Below are positions 3,437 through 57,959 of a stretch of 64,000 nt of DNA, piece after piece; positions within the stretch are counted from its first letter, which is position 1, and each line of letters opens with the position of its first letter. A program made the translations under genes and the position numbers. The stretch lies in the NCBI RefSeq assembly GCF_058153355.1, contig NZ_CM177019.1. One strand, written 5' to 3'. The notes below the pieces were generated by a model. The model was not told where the DNA came from. It worked only from the letters and a program-made list of their open reading frames with translations, and ran no database searches.

Positions 3437-5101
<1,665 letters not shown>

Positions 5102-5116
5102 CAGGTCAGCACCGAT

Positions 5117-5149
5117 GCCTGATAAGACGCTCGCTGCGTTTTATCAGGC
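5117..5149. terminator. Hairpin between convergent dtpD and phr (gcctgataa ... ttatcaggc), likely bidirectional terminator / REP-like
   Basis: Perfect 9-bp inverted repeat with 15-nt loop located between two convergent stops. Confidence 0.5.
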
Positions 5150-6562
5150 TCCTTTCCTCGCTTCTTCGTACGCTGCCAGCGTTCGCAGCCTTGCCTCTTT
5201 GTGATCAACTATCGGTTGCGGATAATCCAGCGTCACACCTGCTTTCTGCGCCCACTTCCACGGTTCATGCACCGCTTTCCCTGGTACATCACGCAACTCT
5301 GGTAACCACTGGCGGATAAACTCACCTTCGTGGTCAAATTTCTCGCCCTGAGTTGTCGGGTTGAAAATACGGAAATACGGTGCAGCATCAGTTCCAGTAG
5401 AAGCCGCCCATTGCCAGCCACCGTTATTGGCTGCCAAATCACCATCAATCAGTTGCGACATGAAATATCGCTCGCCTTCCCGCCAGTCGATCAGCAAATC
5501 TTTCACCAGAAAACTGGCAGTAATCATCCGCAGGCGATTATGCATCCAGCCAGCGCTGTTAAGCTGACGCATGGCCGCATCAACAATCGGGTATCCCGTT
5601 TTGCCTTCCTGCCAGGCCTTTAAATGCGCGGGATTGCTTTGCCACTGTACGCGATCGGTCCAGGCAATAAAGGGGCGATGCTTACACAGTGACGGGTGAT
5701 ACGTCATCAAATGACGGTAGAACTCGCGCCAGATCAGCTCATTAAGCCAGACGCTACCCGGTCCGCCTTCCAGCGCCTGCGGCTGTTCCGCCAACAGGCG
5801 ATGCAGACACTGGCGAGGCGATAACCTACCCGTTGCAAGGCTTGCAGACAAACGGCTGGTGCCTTCCACTGCCGGAAAATCACGCTGCTGATCGTACTGA
5901 CTCGCACCGTTCTGGCAAAACTGGCGTAATTGCGCAATCGCCGCTTTTTCTTCCACCGGGAAATGCGCGGTATCGAAAGACTGACGAGGGTAATTCAGCG
6001 TAATAGATGGCGCGGGATCTAATGATCCGCTACTCCGAACTTTTGGCGCAGCGACGCACTCCGGCATCCCTTCCCGCAGCCGTTTCAGCCAGGCATTCTT
6101 AAAAGGCGTAAAGACTTTGTACATCTCATGATTGCCAGTCATCACCGCCCCCGGCGGCAGGATCACGCTGTCATCGAACCCTTCACACACCACGTTACTC
6201 AGCGCTCTTTCAACTTCCACATCCCGCGCCCGCTCATTCACCTCATACTGATAGTTATAAAACAGATGGGTAACACGATTTTCCGCGCACACCTGTTTAA
6301 CTATTTCGACGCTGGCGGCAAAGTCATCCACTTCATGAAACAGCAAAGGAATGCCTTTTTCCGCCAGCGCGATTTGTAGCCCGTTCAGTTGTGCATTGAT
6401 AAATTCAGCCTGACGCGGCGACATATTATGCGCCGCCCACTGGCGTGGTGTAGCGATATACAACGCCAGCACGCGTGCAGACGAATAGCGGCAAGCGGCC
6501 GCCAGCGCGAGATTATCATGCAGACGTAAATCCTGGCGAAACCAGACCAGATGGGTAGTCAT
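5144..6562 (-). CDS. phr: Deoxyribodipyrimidine photolyase
   Basis: 472-aa ORF with C-terminal FAD-binding region (WQWAASTGTDAAPYFRIFNP). Confidence 0.9.
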   Translation of the reverse strand: MTTHLVWFRQDLRLHDNLALAAACRYSSARVLALYIATPRQWAAHNMSPRQAEFINAQLNGLQIALAEKGIPLLFHEVDDFAASVEIVKQVCAENRVTHLFYNYQYEVNERARDVEVERALSNVVCEGFDDSVILPPGAVMTGNHEMYKVFTPFKNAWLKRLREGMPECVAAPKVRSSGSLDPAPSITLNYPRQSFDTAHFPVEEKAAIAQLRQFCQNGASQYDQQRDFPAVEGTSRLSASLATGRLSPRQCLHRLLAEQPQALEGGPGSVWLNELIWREFYRHLMTYHPSLCKHRPFIAWTDRVQWQSNPAHLKAWQEGKTGYPIVDAAMRQLNSAGWMHNRLRMITASFLVKDLLIDWREGERYFMSQLIDGDLAANNGGWQWAASTGTDAAPYFRIFNPTTQGEKFDHEGEFIRQWLPELRDVPGKAVHEPWKWAQKAGVTLDYPQPIVDHKEARLRTLAAYEEARKGA

Positions 6563-7113
6563 AAAACTCCTGCATGGCGCAAGTTAATCACCCGCGGCCA
6601 AAGTTCGAAATAACGCTGCTCTGAAAGCCAGGCGTCAGGATAAAGCGCCATATAGTGTTTGATACGCATCAGCGGCGCAAGAAGCGGTTGCTCGCCACGG
6701 CGATAACTGTCGATAAGCGCCGCCAGCTGCTGGCGTTCTGTGGAATCAATATGTGGGCGAAAATAACCCTGAACGTGCATCAAAACGTTGGTGTGATCGC
6801 GCGGGTTGGCGGGATGAGAAAGCAAAACAATGACGCGTTGGCGGTACTGGTTGTAATAGTCATCCAGATTTTGCCACTGGTGAATATCAGCCACAAACGG
6901 GCCAAGTTTGCGGTATTCCGGCTGGGAATGAGCCAGAAAGACGAGTTTATAGCGGCTGTGATAATCGTTGAGCGCCCCGCGCGTTAAGCCATGTTCTTTC
7001 AGTCGATGTAACTCATAAAGCGCGAAGATACGGATTAAAGTGCTTTCATCAAATCGTTGCTGATTCATTACTGCTCCTGAACGGTTTACAGGAGTAAGTG
7101 TAGACGTTGGCAA
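6559..7113 (-). CDS. ybgA: DUF1722 protein YbgA (co-transcribed with phr)
   Basis: ORF whose stop overlaps phr start by 4 bp; true start may be an internal ATG (K-12 protein is shorter than the 184-aa maximal ORF). Confidence 0.7.
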   Translation of the reverse strand: MPTSTLTPVNRSGAVMNQQRFDESTLIRIFALYELHRLKEHGLTRGALNDYHSRYKLVFLAHSQPEYRKLGPFVADIHQWQNLDDYYNQYRQRVIVLLSHPANPRDHTNVLMHVQGYFRPHIDSTERQQLAALIDSYRRGEQPLLAPLMRIKHYMALYPDAWLSEQRYFELWPRVINLRHAGVL

Positions 7114-7128
7114 ATGATGTTTGTGAAG

Positions 7129-7986
7129 TTAATCCTGTTGTAGCAGGGCAAGATTACGAAAGCACGCTCCCCGCAAGGACTGACGCCAGGTAGTTTCTGT
7201 CCATGGCTGCCCTTTCCATTCACACGTGAAATCAATAAGTTCATCAGGGACATCGCAAACAATGTGAAGACGGATTTCTTCTCTGCCGTGACTCTTTTCA
7301 CTAATTGCGTAACTGTCATGCTCTGGATTATTTAATTCTTTCAGTGAGAATTTTTCCTCAAAGGCTTTATTTAGCCGCCCCTGGTTTCCTTTTACAGCGA
7401 ATAAATAATCACCTCCCTGTTTTTGTATCTTCTCTGCAATATCTTTCTGGCAACCCATCGCATCAGTTGTGATGATTTTTCCTTTAATATCCAGCATGTT
7501 AAGAAGTTCAGGGATAGCTGTAATTTCATTTGATTTCTCATCCGTCCTGATCTGTCCGATGACCAGACTGTGCATTGTTGAGAACGCACTAATGACATGA
7601 ATCGCTCCCCTGCAGCGACTCTTGTCATAAGAATGCCGGAGCTTTTTTCCATCAATTGCAATGACGTCTTTATCATCTGAAGAATGGCAGTCACGCATCC
7701 AGTTAATAAAGCACTCGTGAAATTTTGCAGGACTGATACAGGATACAACTCTGGCAATGGTATCGTGAACAGGAATACCATTTTCAAAATCACCCTATTG
7801 CTTCAAAAAATCGAGATGTGTTTCCCCAAAATCCTCTATATCTTCTCAACCTTCTGCACCCGAAATAACGGCGCAAATAGTCAACAGTAGAATATCCGAT
7901 AATTTATGTTCCACTTTCCAGGCTTGTCTGTAATCGGGGATAATAGAAATATGTTCCATCAATTTTTTAAGTACCATTTTGTTCTC
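7129..7986 (-). pseudogene. Decayed H-repeat (ISAs1-family) transposase: frameshifted and internally deleted
   Basis: N-terminus [43 protein letters not shown] then stop; body in two overlapping frames (7392-7793 and 7129-7698); the canonical C-terminal peptide [12 protein letters not shown] appears out of frame after ...EWKG, indicating an internal deletion. Confidence 0.8.
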
Positions 7987-9211: not shown

Positions 9212-11977
9212 TCAATGTGATGAATCATAAACATTATTCAAAAATAGATTTTGTTCTTTTCGGCGTCGTATAACAAGGCCAGCAACTCCGCCATTTGTAA
9301 TATCAAGAAATTCATTGGAGGCACCTATATAATCCTTTTGATTAAGTTTAGAATTCAAATTCGGTGCCTTACTCATGCTCCCCATATTAAACAATAAACT
9401 TATTAACGCATCAAATTCGTACTGATATAAATCCACACTCACTGTTCTTTTAAGCTCACTAACAAAACCAGATAAACGCTCTTCAAATAACTCATCAGCT
9501 TTAGCAATTGTTATTCCATGCTGAAATTCTTCTGGTAAAACTATATCATTGCAACGTTGTGTAGCAATTAAATGTCCATAACCTATAGTACAGTAACCTT
9601 CTGAATCATTATATGCTGTTAGTTGTAAATATTCCCATTCTTTTATAAAACCCTTACCTTTATTTGATACATTCAAATCTGCAATGGCGATCCTTTCAGC
9701 AGTTTGTTCTTCGTTAAAACTATTGATGTACCCCTCCATCAATATATCAATTGGATCATGTAAATCATCCCGTCTATAAAATGGAGGTATTTGTGTATTA
9801 TTCGGCGGAGGCGCTCCATTGTTTCCTGGATAGTATTCAAAATGCAACATATAAACCACTTCTTCCCCAGGGATTATAACTGGAGGCCTCCCTGTATCAG
9901 GTTTAATCATCAACCCTGTTTTGGCAATTATTGCCCCTTGCATAATATGATCATTAATCTTTACTAAAATACTTGATGGATCAACTTCACCATACCGCAC
10001 ATAGAAATGCCGACCATCTCTAGTCGAGTGCTCAATCGTAACTTGCCAAGTACCGTAATAGTATCGAGAAATAGCTCTTACTATTCCGTTGCAAACCGAA
10101 ACAATATCAGACTTCGGTTCCGTATATAGATCACGCGCTCCATGTTTTCTATTACCATTATTACGATTTCGTCCAAATATAGCTTGAGAGGCATTTCGAT
10201 CTGTCAAGGCAGCAGCCCAAAAATAATTTTTCCACTTTCCATTTTTGTCATTATTAGGTTTTACTTTTAAAGGAAAAATAATTTGATTTGATTTTTTCTG
10301 AGATAATGAATCTAAAAACACAACCGGATGAAAATGCCACACAGCATCATCACTATTAAACGGAGATACCCCGCTCATCCACTCCAGATCCAGCTGCCAC
10401 TTCTCACAGTATGCCACTTCCTCTGTATCCAGATCTTTATAAAATCCTTCCCACCGCCCTGTCGAGCGCCCTCCGTACCATTCGCTGTGGTGTTTAACTA
10501 TCAGATGATTCACCACATTTCTCACCAGTGGTTCACGCACGATCAGCGCCTGTCTGATCTCTTCCTCCGTCACTTTTCCATCACCGTCCTGATCCATACC
10601 CGCCATCAGCTCACGATAAAAGGGCGGTACCTGCTCATACAGCCACTCATCTCCCTGTTCTGCGGCACGGCTTATTGAGTCAAACGCTTCCGGCACCCAT
10701 CCTTCGTACGGGCTGTACGTCATGTCACCGCTGCTGTTCTCCTCCAGCGGTTGAAAACCCAGCTTCAGTAAATCATACTGTCCGGCCTCTTCAACATCCT
10801 TTTGTGGCAGCCAGCCGGTTCCGGTGATATTAAACCACCACTGCTGCGATTCATCCGTGACTGGTGTCGTGGCTTCCCGCGGAAGAACGCGCTGAGCACC
10901 CAGCGTGGCTGCGGTTGCGGTAAATACCTCCTGTCCCGGAACGGCCTGCCGGGTGTATAAAATTATCCCTTTTGGTGCCAGAACAGTCCGTTTTTCTCCC
11001 TTAACGCCTGCCGGGTTGGATAAGAACTTTGGCATATTCGGGTCTGTACTCAGAACCTCCAGATGGACGAACCACTCGCGCTCAATCTCACCGCTTCCCT
11101 CGCCAGGATAATCCTCGCATCCCATAAATCCGACCGGTGTTCCGGCACTGACTTTCCACTCTTCCGTTTCGTCGACCGTCTGTACCGAGTCAAAAATGCC
11201 TTTTGCCTTCGCCTTCTGCATCCACTCAGGCATCAGCATCTGTATTTCGCCATCTGACTCCATCAGATCCGGATCCAGGGTCACCCAGTACTGCTCATTC
11301 CCCGGTTTATTGCCTTCCAGCAGGCGAACCAGTCCGAATGTCGTCAGGACCGGCTGGCCGTTATTGGTCACGTAAAAACGTCCGGTCCGGGATGACACAA
11401 ACCGATCTCCCGCATTAAGTGTCCTGTTTCCGCTGATTTTCGGGGGTATCCAGTACGTGGCATGATCTCCGCTTTCCTGCCCCTCGGGAAGGCCGTTCTT
11501 TCCCGGGATGTATCGGTGCAGCAATATGCCACCATGCCCGGTTTTAACTTTATAGCAGGGGGAGCCGGGATAATCGTTCACCGGGGCCAGATGCATATAG
11601 AGACAGTAAAATTCCAGCCAGCTTTCTTTTTTTTGCGGGTCTGGCTGGCACTGCGATTTCACCAGAACAAATGTGCTGCTGTAACGGAGTTGCTGCCCTT
11701 TGTAGGGGCCTTTCAGGTAATCATTATTTATCCGGTACGCCGCAATGGTGCCATCGGCCATAAACTGAAGAGGAACCGGTTCTCCGGTAGCGGCGGTATC
11801 CGGTTTCAGGGCTGATAACGGATTAGACACGTCACTGATATGTATCCCGCCGTGCCACAGCCCGTTTCCACCCAGCAGCCAGGTTCCGTGCGCTTCTTTG
11901 TCAATAAGCCGCATTATCTCATCCAGTGAGCGAAACTCTTTGCCTTCTTTATCCCTGATGGGATGGCTGATTTTCAT
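9212..11977 (-). CDS. Candidate T6SS cargo effector: multidomain peptidoglycan hydrolase (M23/LytM-like domain plus C-terminal T4-lysozyme-like GH24 domain), with an EF-hand-like loop
   Basis: 921-aa ORF starting 9 bp after the vgrG stop with an AAGGA ribosome-binding site; C-terminus carries the phage-lysozyme signature EWEYLQLTAYNDSEGYCTIGYGHL; middle region has KHGARD (HxxxD) ... YMLHFEY (M23-like); DQDGDGKVTEEE calcium-binding-type loop. Confidence 0.7.
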   Translation of the reverse strand: MKISHPIRDKEGKEFRSLDEIMRLIDKEAHGTWLLGGNGLWHGGIHISDVSNPLSALKPDTAATGEPVPLQFMADGTIAAYRINNDYLKGPYKGQQLRYSSTFVLVKSQCQPDPQKKESWLEFYCLYMHLAPVNDYPGSPCYKVKTGHGGILLHRYIPGKNGLPEGQESGDHATYWIPPKISGNRTLNAGDRFVSSRTGRFYVTNNGQPVLTTFGLVRLLEGNKPGNEQYWVTLDPDLMESDGEIQMLMPEWMQKAKAKGIFDSVQTVDETEEWKVSAGTPVGFMGCEDYPGEGSGEIEREWFVHLEVLSTDPNMPKFLSNPAGVKGEKRTVLAPKGIILYTRQAVPGQEVFTATAATLGAQRVLPREATTPVTDESQQWWFNITGTGWLPQKDVEEAGQYDLLKLGFQPLEENSSGDMTYSPYEGWVPEAFDSISRAAEQGDEWLYEQVPPFYRELMAGMDQDGDGKVTEEEIRQALIVREPLVRNVVNHLIVKHHSEWYGGRSTGRWEGFYKDLDTEEVAYCEKWQLDLEWMSGVSPFNSDDAVWHFHPVVFLDSLSQKKSNQIIFPLKVKPNNDKNGKWKNYFWAAALTDRNASQAIFGRNRNNGNRKHGARDLYTEPKSDIVSVCNGIVRAISRYYYGTWQVTIEHSTRDGRHFYVRYGEVDPSSILVKINDHIMQGAIIAKTGLMIKPDTGRPPVIIPGEEVVYMLHFEYYPGNNGAPPPNNTQIPPFYRRDDLHDPIDILMEGYINSFNEEQTAERIAIADLNVSNKGKGFIKEWEYLQLTAYNDSEGYCTIGYGHLIATQRCNDIVLPEEFQHGITIAKADELFEERLSGFVSELKRTVSVDLYQYEFDALISLLFNMGSMSKAPNLNSKLNQKDYIGASNEFLDITNGGVAGLVIRRRKEQNLFLNNVYDSSH

Positions 11978-11986
11978 GTTCAGTCC

Positions 11987-14186
11987 TTATCGTGAGAATC
12001 TTCCCGGCCGTTGTGGCGGTACCTTATCCTGCTGGGGAGGATCAAAGGCTTCCTGTACACTTTTCCGTGGTGGCTCCGCCCCTTCAGTTCCAGGTCCGCC
12101 ATTGTCATAATCTGCCAGCGCTTTCAAAACCGCCGGTCGTAGCGTCGGCACCGGCGTTCCCGGACTACCGCCGCTATTGAGATTGATTTTCGGCCCGACG
12201 ATGTCCACGCCCCCTGAATGGATGACCACAAACGAACCACCCACCTTTAGGGTGATTTTACCGCCACTCTCCAGTACGATTTCATTCCGGACCTTCATTC
12301 CCAGCGCACCGGTAATCTTCCTCGCCAGGTCGCCCTTCACCTCCAGACTGTGCTTTCCCTCCACCAGGCTGATATGGTTCCCCGTCGTCTTATGCTCCTG
12401 CTTCCCTTCCACCGTCACTTTACGGTCGTTTCTGACATACAGGCCGTCATCGTGACTCACGCTCACCGTCCGGTCATTCGTCACCTTCAGCGTCTGGTCA
12501 TTACGTACCGTTATGCGCCGGTCGTTCGCCACCGTGATACTCTGGTCGTGACCCCCTTCTTTTCTGGTGCCGACCTCAACCGTCTGCCCCTTCACCACCC
12601 TTATCTTCTGGTCGTTACCGATGGTCTCCGTATGGTCATGCTTCACGTCCGTCGTCCGGTCGTTAAGCACCTCCGTGTCCATGTTCTTCTGCGCGTGGAT
12701 ATACACCTGCTCACTGTCCGTCGCATCCTCGAAACGCAGTTCATTAAAGCCGCTTCCTTTATAGGTCTTCGAGCGGATGGTCATCTGCGTCCGCGTGCCC
12801 GGTAAATCCCCCGGTGAACGGTTATCTTCATGGTAGGTCCGCCCCGTCACAATGGGCTGGTCCGGGTCGCCGTTCAGAAAGTCCACTATCACTTCCTGAC
12901 CCACACGCGGTATCGCCAGATTGCCGAACCCCGGTCCCGCCCATGCCTGCGACACCCGTATCCAGCACGAACTCTCCTCCGTCATCCCGTGATAACGGTC
13001 CCAGTGAAACTTCACCCGTACCCGGCCATGCTCGTCGCAGAATATCTCCTCACCCTTCGGCCCGGTCACGATGGCACTCTGCGGGCCGTCCACCTTCGGC
13101 TTCGGCAGCGGCGCGTGACGCCACGTCCTGTCTGCCGGTATCACCTCAAACTGATTGCTCAGTGTCGTCCCTTCACCGTGACTCCCGTGCAGCGCCTGCG
13201 GCTGTTCTCCCCGCAGTGTGCTTCCCACAACCTGCCATTCCCGGTTCAGCGTCTCTGAGGGATGGCCCGTCAGCCGGAACCGCGTTCCCGGCCACAGCCG
13301 CGCCGTGTTACACACCCCGCTCGCCGTCTCCGCCCCGTTCCGCCACCCTTCCGTCTGGTAACGCGCAAAATCCTGGCCATGCTGCTCATCCTTGAAACGC
13401 CCCGGATAATCAAATATCTCGTACTGCGTTCCCTGCCCGTTCAGGCTCTCCCCGTCATGGCTGTAGTACCCCGGCCACCCCGGCGTTTTGAACGTATAAT
13501 CCTGCGTCTCCACCGACGCCACGCTTATCTGCGCACGGTAACGAAACTCACTGATGTACTCCGTCGTTCCCCCGGTCGTGGTATTCGGGTTAAACGCCAG
13601 CGCCCCCATTCCCGTCAGCCCCGCCACGTCATCACACACCGCCAGCTTCTGCTCCGGCCCTTCCTGACCGCAGCGCTCATAAAAGAAGATACCTTCCTCC
13701 GCCCACAGCCGGGTCAGGAATGCCAGGTCGCTCTCCCCGTACTGCACGCAGAACTCCCGCGCCGGGTGCGCCTCATAGAACAGCGGCATCCACGCCGTCA
13801 CCCCGTTCTCTCTCAGAAGCTGTGCTGATATCGTCTGAATGTCCTGCTGCTGGAAGATACGGAAGTTCTGCCGTAACCCTGCCCGCCACAGCGGCGGGCT
13901 GATGCTCAGGGAATAACGCATCTGCCAGTCGTTGTTCTCACCGAGCTGCACCTCCGTCACGATACCGCTGACGTAACGCTGCGGGATATCACCCTGCCAG
14001 ACCGTCAGCACCGCGCTCTTCTCCAGAAAATCCTCCGCCATCAGGTCGGACAGCCCGCTGGCGATATCCACATCCAGGATGAACGACGTGCAGTGGTGCT
14101 GGTACAGACGGAAGCTCACCACCGCCGTCGCCATCTCCACGATACCGTCCACCGACAGCGTGAAACGTAATCCTTCTGAGGACATA
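11987..14186 (-). CDS. vgrG: Type VI secretion spike protein VgrG (gp27/gp5-like)
   Basis: About 733 aa from MSSEGLRFTL; characteristic VgrG N-terminus, gp5-like beta-helix repeats (VTVxNDRxxTV...) and Pro-rich C-terminal tail; the maximal ORF extends 11 codons further upstream. Confidence 0.85.
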
Positions 14187-14360
14187 TAAACCCCATAGCT
14201 ACCGCACTCATGGTGCAAACCATACGGGCTTATAAGAAAGGCTTAAGTGAGATATCTGCCAGATAGCAACTATTAGGAAAATATTTATATATATTTCATG
14301 AATATATATTTCGGTTGGTATAACGGTGTCTAAATATTCCTCTGAACATCTTCCTGATAC

Positions 14361-55748: not shown

Positions 55749-57626
55749 TTACGGTTCAGGGATACAAGCCACATCGCCATATTGGGGATGCCGAATAATT
55801 GCCTGCGGATCAAGCGAGCGCGTCCTGTCCATTTGGATTAACCCGTTCTTCGCCATAACAAATATCTTTCTACCATCCGCTGAAAAACGAAGATGATTAA
55901 CGTAGCTGGCAGGATAAACGCCAATAATCTGCCCGGCATTAATATTGAGCAGGATGACATAACCTTGCAGGCCATATGACACCAACGCTAAATACTGACC
56001 GTCCGGGCTAATACCCTCAACAGAATAAACGCTCCTGCTACACCATTGCGTCATAATGCTGGCTTGTTGATCCCCTGTGCTTATACGTGAAATCCCCTGA
56101 CTATCGGCAAAAATAACCTCACCATTTTTTGGTCGGAATCCCATCGCAGAAACGACACCACGCGCATCACCTGCGGGAAAGTCTTCTTTCTGATGCGTGA
56201 TGGTATTGATCCGCACGATGTTACCTCTGCCTGCTCCTGGAACCAGTAATGTTTTTTCATCCGGGGAAAGTGCCATAACCCAGGCGCCTGGTTTACCGCT
56301 CGTCCCCGTCCCGTCGTATTTCTCCAGTGCGATATCCGCCACATGCTGATAAGTCACCAGATCAATCGCTGACACACTATTACTGGTGCGATTCATCACC
56401 CAGGCTTTTGTGCCATCACGCGAGAGGATAAGGCTGTCAGGATGGGCGCCGGTGGTAATCGACTGAATAATCTCCCCCGTCGCCACGTTAACGACCGATA
56501 ATGCATTCGCTTCAAATGAAGTCGCATACAGCAACTTTTCATCGGGGCTTAACACCAGCGATCTGACGCCCTGATCTTTACAGCCACCACAATGTTTGAC
56601 TGACTTTTCTTTCGCTATGGGCGCTGTAAAGGTATGCAGGATTTTCTTTTGTCCGAGGTCGAAAACAACAATACTGTTCGTGTTTTCAATTGCGGCATAT
56701 AACGTATTACCATCCCGATTGATCGCCATATCATGGATATCGGCAATCTCAGCGAGCAAATCACCACTGGCCTGTTCACGACTTACCGGAGCGGATAATG
56801 TTTCCCTGAGGGCATTGCGTTCCTCCGCTAACTGCTGCTTTTTATGCCGTCGCTCTTGTTCAATCTCCTGCGGATAAAACTCTTCACGCAGGCTTTGCCT
56901 GACCTGCAAAACTGATTCATCAATCTGCTGCTGCACAAGCCAGATAGCCCCGGTCAGTAGAAGACTACCCGCAACAATAATCCCACCTTCCGTAACGAGC
57001 CGGTTTTGCCCAGATAAACGCGCACTCAGCCAACCCAACGCTCCACCTGCCATCAGGCCGCCAATGTGGCAAGCGTTATCTATTCCTGCTTGCCGGGCAC
57101 CATACAACAGTGTCAGCGCCACCATACCCAACAGAGAAAATACTCGCCGCTGGTTTTTATGGTGTGTACCCGCACCTGAAGAAAGCTGTGTTGCTATCGC
57201 AGCGCCAGCTATTCCCATAATTGCCCCGGATGCCCCAACGCTGATGACTATCTGCTCACTTTCGCGTAACGCATAACAGGCGCTGATGAGCCCACCAAAG
57301 ATGCCGGAGAATAACCAGATAATCAGGAGTCGCCATTTCCCCAGTATCCGTTCCGCCACTGTCCCCACCACCAGGAGTGCAAACATATTCATCAGCAAAT
57401 GGGAAAAACTACTGTGCAGAAAAACACTGCTCAATAAGCGCCAGGGTTCACCCGACAACGTGAGAGAGGCAACGTTAGCGCCGAGATGGATGAGTGCGGA
57501 TTGATCGACTTCTTCATAACTCATCCATTGTGCGAGGTAACAAAATATCCCAACACATAGCGCAAAAAGGATCAGGGTTATTGCGGGTAATTGAACATTT
57601 AACGGCTTAACCGAAGATGCAGACAT
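55749..57626 (-). CDS. Rhomboid-family intramembrane serine protease fused to a C-terminal beta-propeller (YVTN-like repeat) domain
   Basis: About 625 aa from MSASSVKPLN (AAGGAAG ribosome-binding site); rhomboid signatures GASGAIMG (GxSG) and HIGG; coiled-coil linker; repeated S/T-rich beta-strand motifs (e.g. NSIVVFDL, NALSVVNVATGE, NSVSAIDL). Confidence 0.7.
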   Translation of the reverse strand: MSASSVKPLNVQLPAITLILFALCVGIFCYLAQWMSYEEVDQSALIHLGANVASLTLSGEPWRLLSSVFLHSSFSHLLMNMFALLVVGTVAERILGKWRLLIIWLFSGIFGGLISACYALRESEQIVISVGASGAIMGIAGAAIATQLSSGAGTHHKNQRRVFSLLGMVALTLLYGARQAGIDNACHIGGLMAGGALGWLSARLSGQNRLVTEGGIIVAGSLLLTGAIWLVQQQIDESVLQVRQSLREEFYPQEIEQERRHKKQQLAEERNALRETLSAPVSREQASGDLLAEIADIHDMAINRDGNTLYAAIENTNSIVVFDLGQKKILHTFTAPIAKEKSVKHCGGCKDQGVRSLVLSPDEKLLYATSFEANALSVVNVATGEIIQSITTGAHPDSLILSRDGTKAWVMNRTSNSVSAIDLVTYQHVADIALEKYDGTGTSGKPGAWVMALSPDEKTLLVPGAGRGNIVRINTITHQKEDFPAGDARGVVSAMGFRPKNGEVIFADSQGISRISTGDQQASIMTQWCSRSVYSVEGISPDGQYLALVSYGLQGYVILLNINAGQIIGVYPASYVNHLRFSADGRKIFVMAKNGLIQMDRTRSLDPQAIIRHPQYGDVACIPEP

Positions 57627-57959
57627 AAGGTGATTCTTCCTTGAAAAGACAGGTAAAAAAGCATTTTTCCCGTGTGCAGTTATCATCCCGGCAAACGTCC
57701 CATACCGAAAAGTTAACTCTGTCCGAAATATGACTTTTTCAGCCTGAAATTACAATCGTAATTAATTCACCCCTAAGTATTTTTTGGCATGTAAGTTGCT
57801 TTATTTACTGTGTAAGCAATGAAATCAGCCGCAACGCAACCGGGTTGCACCAACACAAATCAGCGGTAGCACCAAAAAGGTGCGGTTTAAGAGTTTTGCT
57901 TCGGAATGGTGCGGCGCATCTCGCAAAAACAAACAATAAAACATCAATATCTTTACATT

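Follow-up and report, generated by a model that had tools for sequence, protein, structure and literature searches.

A probable WHIX-class type VI secretion effector with M23-like and GH24 lysozyme domains in a small vgrG island of Escherichia

WHIX domains are characterised by the motif WHxxxH together with a bipartite core of conserved sequence (Fridman et al., PLoS Biol 2025, PMC12135965). A WHIX domain alone is enough for secretion through a type VI secretion system (T6SS), with the C-terminus of VgrG as a requirement, and it is fused almost always to a peptidoglycan-targeting toxin that is followed by an immunity gene with a signal peptide (PMC12135965). The domain is almost confined to T6SS-positive genomes (PMC12135965), and secretion dependent on the T6SS and on VgrG via WHIX has been shown for Aeromonas and Vibrio members. 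The survey sorted the C-termini by their last 100 residues, counted 432 unique proteins in a 'Lysozyme-like' class, and leaves an M23-like domain and an EF-hand unmentioned (PMC12135965). Here, we analysed a 921-residue effector candidate encoded directly after a vgrG gene in a 64-kb window, that is, the whole 64,000-nucleotide stretch of contig NZ_CM177019.1 (assembly GCF_058153355.1). An earlier note, made from the sequence alone, had described its product as a VgrG-linked cell-wall toxin with a lysozyme domain, an M23-like domain and an EF-hand loop.

Two individually characterised effectors are among the closest described systems. TseP of Aeromonas dhakensis is a VgrG2-dependent amidase-lysozyme chimeric effector whose N-terminal part, TseP-N, was reported to act as a Zn-dependent amidase and can restore T6SS assembly (eLife 2025, PMC11893102). 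SARI_02625 and SARI_02624 form an effector/immunity pair of the Salmonella pathogenicity island 21 (SPI-21) T6SS of S. enterica subsp. arizonae (Front Microbiol 2026, PMC12992299). SARI_02625 (1,032 residues) carries an EF-hand at 555-588, an M23 segment at 719-795 and an endolysin domain at 882-1024 with the triad E890/D899/T905; it contributes to T6SS-dependent competition, and its endolysin domain is toxic when targeted to the periplasm (PMC12992299).

We conclude that the 921-residue protein is very probably a T6SS cargo of the WHIX class (TseP-like); its gene shares a small vgrG island, flanked by kdp/ybfA and ybgA-phrB, with a candidate immunity gene. The open reading frame (ORF) is intact from its ATG through 921 codons and a stop, the product has no signal peptide, and every motif quoted in the earlier note was found where it had been placed. 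The association with VgrG and with the cell wall is borne out by a vgrG that ends 9 nucleotides before the effector start and by the peptidoglycan-targeting C-terminal domains; no adaptor gene is present. WP_000703217.1, the E. coli protein to which the N-terminal 557 residues are nearly identical (Table 1), is an accession of the published WHIX tree, and WP_181631881.1 and WP_181637571.1, two 921-residue Citrobacter homologues with 66% identity over the full length, appear both in that tree and in its C-terminal set (PMC12135965). The example that the survey gives for its 'Lysozyme-like' class ends in a sequence closely resembling the end of this effector. In Enterobacter hormaechei, a 921-residue homologue lies inside the main T6SS cluster (Hcp, ClpV, VgrG, PAAR, TssM), between vgrG and PAAR/tssM. 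The effector class is thus already known (WHIX/TseP-like, defined in 2025) and near-identical proteins have been deposited, including E. coli HIA4031393.1 at the same locus (99% identity, 917/921). In PADLOC, effector, immunity protein and VgrG all remained without a match, and in NCBIfam and PHROGs the effector and VgrG matched only endolysin or VgrG-type entries.

Table 1. Features of the island; coordinates refer to the 64-kb window, and all listed genes lie on the minus strand
Feature	Coordinates	Strand	Basis
Whole effector gene, 921 residues, putative subclass I WHIX effector	9212..11977	-	Intact ORF, domain matches
WHIX domain, residues 1-557, G+C content (GC) ~53-55%	10307..11977	-	99% identity to WP_000703217.1
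EF-hand-type 12-residue loop DQDGDGKVTEEE, residues 462-473, in WHIX region 2	10559..10594	-	Pfam EF-hand_1, E-value (E) 9.8e-4
M23/LytM-fold domain, residues ~596-745	9743..10192	-	Profile alignment to M23 structures
GH24 phage-type lysozyme (muramidase), residues ~769-921	9212..9672 (including stop codon)	-	Pfam, triad
Candidate cognate immunity gene, 273 residues	8371..9192	-	N-terminal Sec-type signal peptide (MRGKFFMGFLMIFFIHGIAYS), ~30% GC
vgrG (TssI) spike gene, presumed effector carrier	11987..14218	-	TIGR03361 VI_Rhs_Vgr, E 5e-176
Degraded ISAs1 (H-repeat-type) transposase remnant, island edge beside ybgA	7129..7975	-	NF033564, E 7.7e-56

The WHIX carrier and its EF-hand loop

The earlier note recognised no motif in the N-terminal ~450 residues. 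This region belongs to the WHIX domain, which holds the WHxxxH motif as W41-H42-G-G-I-H46, followed by YMH129L, H305-L-E307, H496/E499/W500 and the junction W547-H-F-H-P551-VVFLD. In a homologue search, the segment from residue 1 to ~557 was common to hundreds of enterobacterial proteins with 50-99% identity, and a search with a WHIX profile collected 1079 clusters (50% identity) that extend to Aeromonas, Pseudomonas and Rahnella. Conservation was calculated from ~130 family representatives of such clusters. The most conserved positions are W41-H42-G-G-x-H46, Y127-M-H129-L, A278-G279, H305-x-E307, H496/E499/W500 and W547-H-x-H-P551; the motif residues given at the start of this section are conserved in at least 89% of representatives except H129 (75%), and W41, H42 and H46 reach 97-99%. 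The conserved blocks, at residues ~28-144 and 270-557, are separated by a variable insert and form a bipartite core. WHIX is the domain by which a polymorphic class of effectors, catalogued in 2025, is loaded onto the T6SS. Going by the experiments on homologues, residues 1-557, EF-hand included, would load this effector directly onto the C-terminal tail of VgrG, and firing of the T6SS would deliver it to the periplasm of an adjacent Gram-negative cell.

Some enterobacterial family members (P0015 and P0023) carry an extra N-terminal toxin domain of ~150 residues (GSVGYCARYVKNAISAGG...) before WHIX. Such proteins would count as 'double-blade' WHIX effectors of subclass II.

The canonical EF-hand-type loop that the earlier note had placed at residues 462-473 was confirmed: DQDGDGKVTEEE fits the consensus, in which positions 1, 3 and 5 are D/N/S, position 6 is G, position 8 is hydrophobic and position 12 is E, and the Pfam EF-hand_1 match spans residues 455-478, with a single loop detected. 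Helices are predicted on both sides of the loop, at 452-461 and 471-479, albeit from a poor model. When the WHIX profile was compared by sequence with solved structures, weak matches to EF-hand proteins were all that was found. The loop positions 1, 3, 5, 6 and 12 are kept in 70-81% of representatives, and the EF-hand occurs in WHIX effectors that carry many different toxins. It is an ancestral part of the WHIX carrier and not a regulator added to this toxin. Mutations in the TseP EF-hand had no critical effect, and TseP amidase activity was restored by Zn2+ and not by Ca2+ (PMC11893102). The suggestion that the toxin might be calcium-gated is therefore unsupported: the loop is conserved within WHIX region 2 irrespective of the toxin, and the TseP evidence speaks against strict gating.

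The M23-like and GH24 domains

The GH24 signature described in the earlier note is intact at the C-terminus. Pfam Phage_lysozyme (PF00959) matches residues 779-908 over the full model (E 7.5e-25), and EWEYLQLTAYNDSEGYCTIGYGHL gives E782/D791/T797, residues set apart by the same 9+6 intervals as in the E-[D/C]-T triad known from phage lysozymes. The triad is conserved in homologues, with T797 replaced by Ser in one. A sequence search of the Protein Data Bank (PDB) returned phage endolysins down to E 2.5e-16, and PHROG 7 (endolysin) matched the effector with E 6e-32. We found a GH24 lysozyme fold, with a profile match over the whole domain, and an M23 fold in the segment before it. GH24 would cleave the glycan strands of peptidoglycan and cause lysis, as judged from SARI_02625 and phage lysozymes.

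In sequence and in fold, the C-terminus is best matched by phage endolysins. We also considered that the gene, instead of encoding a T6SS effector, might specify a lysis enzyme of a prophage or tailocin (an endolysin fusion) or be a silent relic, in keeping with this match, with the adjoining ISAs1 remnant and with a window that holds no T6SS core genes. We regard this as highly improbable and rejected the endolysin reading on genomic context, namely the vgrG gene immediately upstream and the position of the Enterobacter homologue in a T6SS core cluster. No phage structural or lysis genes were found around the effector, the downstream gene encodes an immunity-type protein with a signal peptide and not a holin or spanin, and WHIX occurs almost only in T6SS-positive genomes. 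The frame is moreover intact and 99% conserved in another assembly.

The M23-like segment, which lies between WHIX and GH24 and travels with GH24 as one cassette, is less regular. Pfam Peptidase_M23 (PF01551) matches residues 611-688 (E 4.3e-5) and covers only positions 2-73 of the 96 in the model; the segment profile aligns to the M23 domain of phage 2638A (6yj1) with E 2e-4 and to LytM with E 0.02. H612-G-A-R-D616 (KHGARD) aligns to the HxxxD zinc motif of LytM and is invariant. H712 corresponds to the second His of the HxH motif, the first being replaced in M710-L-H712 (MLHFE), and this Met is invariant in all homologues. In M23 peptidases, LytM H260 and H291 are regarded as catalytic. The 'GHL' catalytic His of the phage 2638A domain, equivalent to LytM H260, aligns with an invariant E664 (RYGE), at a place where the LytM alignment is gapped. 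The claim of an M23 segment with a partial HxH motif and possibly altered or lost activity therefore stood as far as the HxxxD motif and the Met replacement are concerned; the catalytic signature proved more incomplete than had been stated, since E664 takes the place of the other catalytic His. This alignment pattern indicates an M23 fold with a probable metal site in which the catalytic signature has failed: the zinc site is probably retained, with its ligand positions H612, D616 and H712 in place and both catalytic His replaced.

H612, D616, E664, M710 and H712 are invariant in the Escherichia, Enterobacter, Citrobacter and Aeromonas members. From Escherichia to Aeromonas the M23-like domain is as conserved as GH24 (45-71% versus 49-72% identity), which argues for a selected function and against decay. 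More generally, both segments and their key residues are shared by Enterobacter, Citrobacter and Aeromonas homologues of full length (a Salmonella member is a 684-residue copy with a truncated N-terminus), and on account of this conservation across homologues we take the M23-like, GH24 and EF-hand features to be more than chance. The M23-like domain appears to be under selection for binding or positioning, for docking of the immunity protein or for an altered catalytic mechanism; most likely it would act as a non-canonical peptidoglycan-binding or positioning module or as a modified peptidase.

The M23-like domain may be a dead LytM-type module that binds or targets peptidoglycan, or provides the surface on which the immunity protein or VgrG docks, which would leave functionally a plain lysozyme effector. 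We give this somewhat less than an even chance. It accounts for the substituted catalytic His positions; moreover, TseP-C also contacts VgrG2, TsiP contacts both halves of TseP, and the immunity protein of the present locus is large enough, at 273 residues, that it could contact two domains. What does not fit is that all three zinc ligands are invariant here, which suggests that metal binding matters; in the classical degenerate LytM factors EnvC and NlpD the zinc ligands are lost.

At the other extreme, the protein could be trifunctional and attack three bonds from one polypeptide, with WHIX as a Zn-dependent N-acetylmuramoyl-L-alanine amidase, the M23-like domain as an endopeptidase using Glu664 as general base in place of His, and GH24 as the lysozyme. 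The amidase activity of TseP-N was demonstrated by liquid chromatography-mass spectrometry, was lost upon His mutation and with the chelator EDTA, and was restored by Zn2+; within the family, the residues of WHxxxH, YMH and HxE show 75-99% conservation, and H612/D616/H712 are kept together with the invariant E664 in a domain whose conservation matches that of GH24. Against it stand the replacement of both M23 catalytic histidines, the lack of toxicity of WHIX alone in the periplasm, and a TseP H339A mutant that is amidase-dead and killed prey like the wild type; in addition, the Salmonella study assayed the endolysin part only. We consider this reading unlikely. The chance is slimmer still that the M23-like domain cleaves peptidoglycan as a peptidase or amidase with a new type of mechanism, which would make, with a WHIX amidase and GH24, a three-activity toxin neutralised by one 273-residue immunity protein.

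Whether WHIX may add a Zn-dependent amidase activity of the kind reported for TseP-N to a T6SS effector of this class is contested, and the two papers disagree on the toxic activity of WHIX (PMC12135965 versus PMC11893102). Several points weigh against our interpretation at this and other places. WHIX alone was non-toxic in the E. coli periplasm (PMC12135965), which conflicts with a strong amidase role. From a reading of the motifs only, H42/H46/H129/H305 would correspond to TseP H19/H23/H109/H359. The AlphaFold model of WHIX was unusable (predicted local distance difference test, pLDDT, 44) and that of residues 556-921 only moderate (pLDDT 59.6). An hhalign comparison of the WHIX profile with the M23-like profile revealed no relation (probability 0.4%); the notion of WHIX as a split M23-like fold, a motif impression from WHGGIH, YMHL and VHLE, was dropped for this lack of statistical support, which leaves the 3SLU superposition in the TseP paper as its basis. 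With an unusable model and a null hhalign result, the amidase and M23-fold claims for WHIX are those of the literature. SARI_02624 (276 residues, signal peptide) rescued toxicity only partially (PMC12992299). Finally, as T6SS core genes were not found within the window, an active T6SS in the source genome is an assumption.

Immunity gene, cassette exchange and chromosomal setting

The ORF of the candidate immunity protein begins 19 nucleotides after the effector. Its signal sequence was judged by inspection, and the protein had no Pfam, NCBIfam, PHROG or PADLOC match. In six other Escherichia loci the gene always follows the M23+GH24 module, and the protein is 40% identical (E 2e-73) to the 278-residue product encoded downstream of the Enterobacter homologue. 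From this synteny, the co-variation with the toxin and the precedent of SARI_02624, we infer that the 273-residue periplasmic protein provides immunity and would protect the producer.

Toxin and immunity gene appear to form a cassette that is exchangeable by recombination at the WHFHPVVFLD junction. Identity to WP_000703217.1 collapses right after this motif (residue 557), and the GC drops there from 0.53-0.55 to 0.32-0.40, with ~0.30 in the immunity gene. Proteins sharing the WHIX N-domain end in different C-termini, which are GH19 chitinase-like, pesticin-like, PF11860 muramidase, GH108, CHAP or M23+GH24. In an Aeromonas protein (P0334), the WHIX carrier is only 29% identical and the M23-like+GH24 unit 45-56% identical. 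N-truncated orphan cassettes with immunity genes occur in E. coli and Salmonella, at some loci as arrays. With its sharp GC break and the displaced N-truncated orphans in sister strains, the locus cleanly illustrates how cassettes are exchanged.

At the kdp-ybgA site of some E. coli strains (loci L003 and L008), we observed a 1151-residue 'evolved' VgrG fused to a pyocin-S/colicin DNase, together with a colicin-type immunity gene. The WHIX effector is displaced there, and what is left is a 551-residue N-truncated M23+GH24 orphan with its immunity gene intact. The kdp-ybgA locus is a hotspot for effector replacement. In Salmonella enterica (LS483428.1), vgrG, a WHIX effector and its immunity gene are followed by an array of four or more cassettes that are N-truncated WHIX C-termini (a pesticin-like one with LprI, M23+GH24, a PF11860 muramidase and GH19) and have a small gene downstream of each, in a layout that resembles the orphan toxin arrays of Rhs and contact-dependent inhibition (CDI) systems.

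The island is bordered on one side by the degraded ISAs1 element, followed by ybgA-phrB-dtpD, and on the other by ybfA and kdpFABCDE, which places it at the intergenic kdp-ybgA site of an Escherichia chromosome. The NF033564 match corresponds to a 189-residue ORF, with in-frame stops in the upstream part of the remnant, and related E. coli cassettes are also flanked by ISAs1 fragments. The vgrG ORF as listed in the window starts with TTG and encodes 743 residues, and its equivalent in an E. coli assembly is called as 732 residues; at the same position of locus L006, a 732-residue VgrG shows Phage_GPD, Phage_base_V and Gp5_trimer_C. Three of 5426 complete E. coli genomes hold the effector gene, and these its N-terminal 60% only.

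For the neighbouring housekeeping genes dtpD, phrB and ybgA (3620-7113), identity is only 90-95% in 5405 of the 5423 complete E. coli genomes compared and 95-99% in the other 18. With this distance from the bulk of E. coli, the window probably derives from a cryptic clade of Escherichia or from a species of the genus other than E. coli. Elsewhere in the window, a 645-residue ORF (55749-57686, minus strand) combines, according to NCBIfam, a rhomboid/rhombosortase-like N-terminal region (residues ~20-222) with beta-propeller repeats (residues ~320-500), an unusual fusion in a window whose housekeeping genes are otherwise standard for Escherichia.

Comparison with described effectors

The combination of glycan-cleaving and peptide-cleaving domains had been called unusual for VgrG cargo. 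This does not hold in view of the 432 lysozyme-like WHIX proteins surveyed, the published SARI_02625 with EF-hand, M23 and endolysin segments, and the bifunctional peptidoglycan effectors already known. Acinetobacter baumannii Tse4, from work by Le et al. in 2021, is reportedly a bifunctional T6SS effector with lytic transglycosylase and endopeptidase activities. Tse4, as cited in PMC12135965, likewise unites glycan-cleaving and peptide-cleaving domain types on one polypeptide with one immunity protein, whereas its carrier and domain families are unrelated. The discovery value of the present locus is accordingly limited: the class was defined in 2025, and the EF-hand/M23/GH24 layout was assayed in Salmonella in 2026.

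With subclass I of the WHIX survey, the effector shares the N-terminal WHIX domain with WHxxxH motif and bipartite core, the adjacency to vgrG, the peptidoglycan toxin and the downstream immunity gene with a signal peptide (PMC12135965). The difference is that the survey describes neither an M23-like domain between WHIX and GH24 nor the EF-hand. By placing the cassette under 'lysozyme-like' only, the survey overlooks the conserved non-canonical M23-like domain.

TseP resembles the effector in its VgrG dependence, presumed for the present protein, its N-domain of ~600 residues with an EF-hand, its lysozyme module of lower GC and its single downstream immunity gene. In contrast, TseP-C is GH19-like (PDB 8xcl) and not GH24, and an M23-like middle domain is missing. 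The Foldseek list of structural homologues of TseP-N in the TseP paper names 'lysozyme' proteins of the present family from E. coli, Enterobacter and Salmonella, and Aeromonas and Pseudomonas 'Peptidase_M23 domain' proteins (PMC11893102), and TseP-N is only ~17-20% identical to the enterobacterial proteins of that list. Two Aeromonas proteins of 844-846 residues (P0218 and P0394) were considered as TseP and rejected. His at both 19 and 23, the TseP pattern, was present in no retrieved protein, and a homologue search seeded with 8xcl (TseP-C) gave nothing above 58% identity.

SARI_02625 has a matching domain layout; in the study that describes it, WHIX was not recognised and the M23-like part lay outside the assays (PMC12992299). 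SARI_02625 is annotated ~108 residues longer at the N-terminus and lies in SPI-21 and not in an orphan vgrG island. It shares with our effector the order EF-hand, M23-like, GH24 and the 9+6 triad spacing, and, compared by coordinates, its reported positions are those of the present protein plus 108. Both also have 7M5I as best structural match and are followed by a signal-peptide protein of nearly the same length, 276 residues in Salmonella and 273 here.

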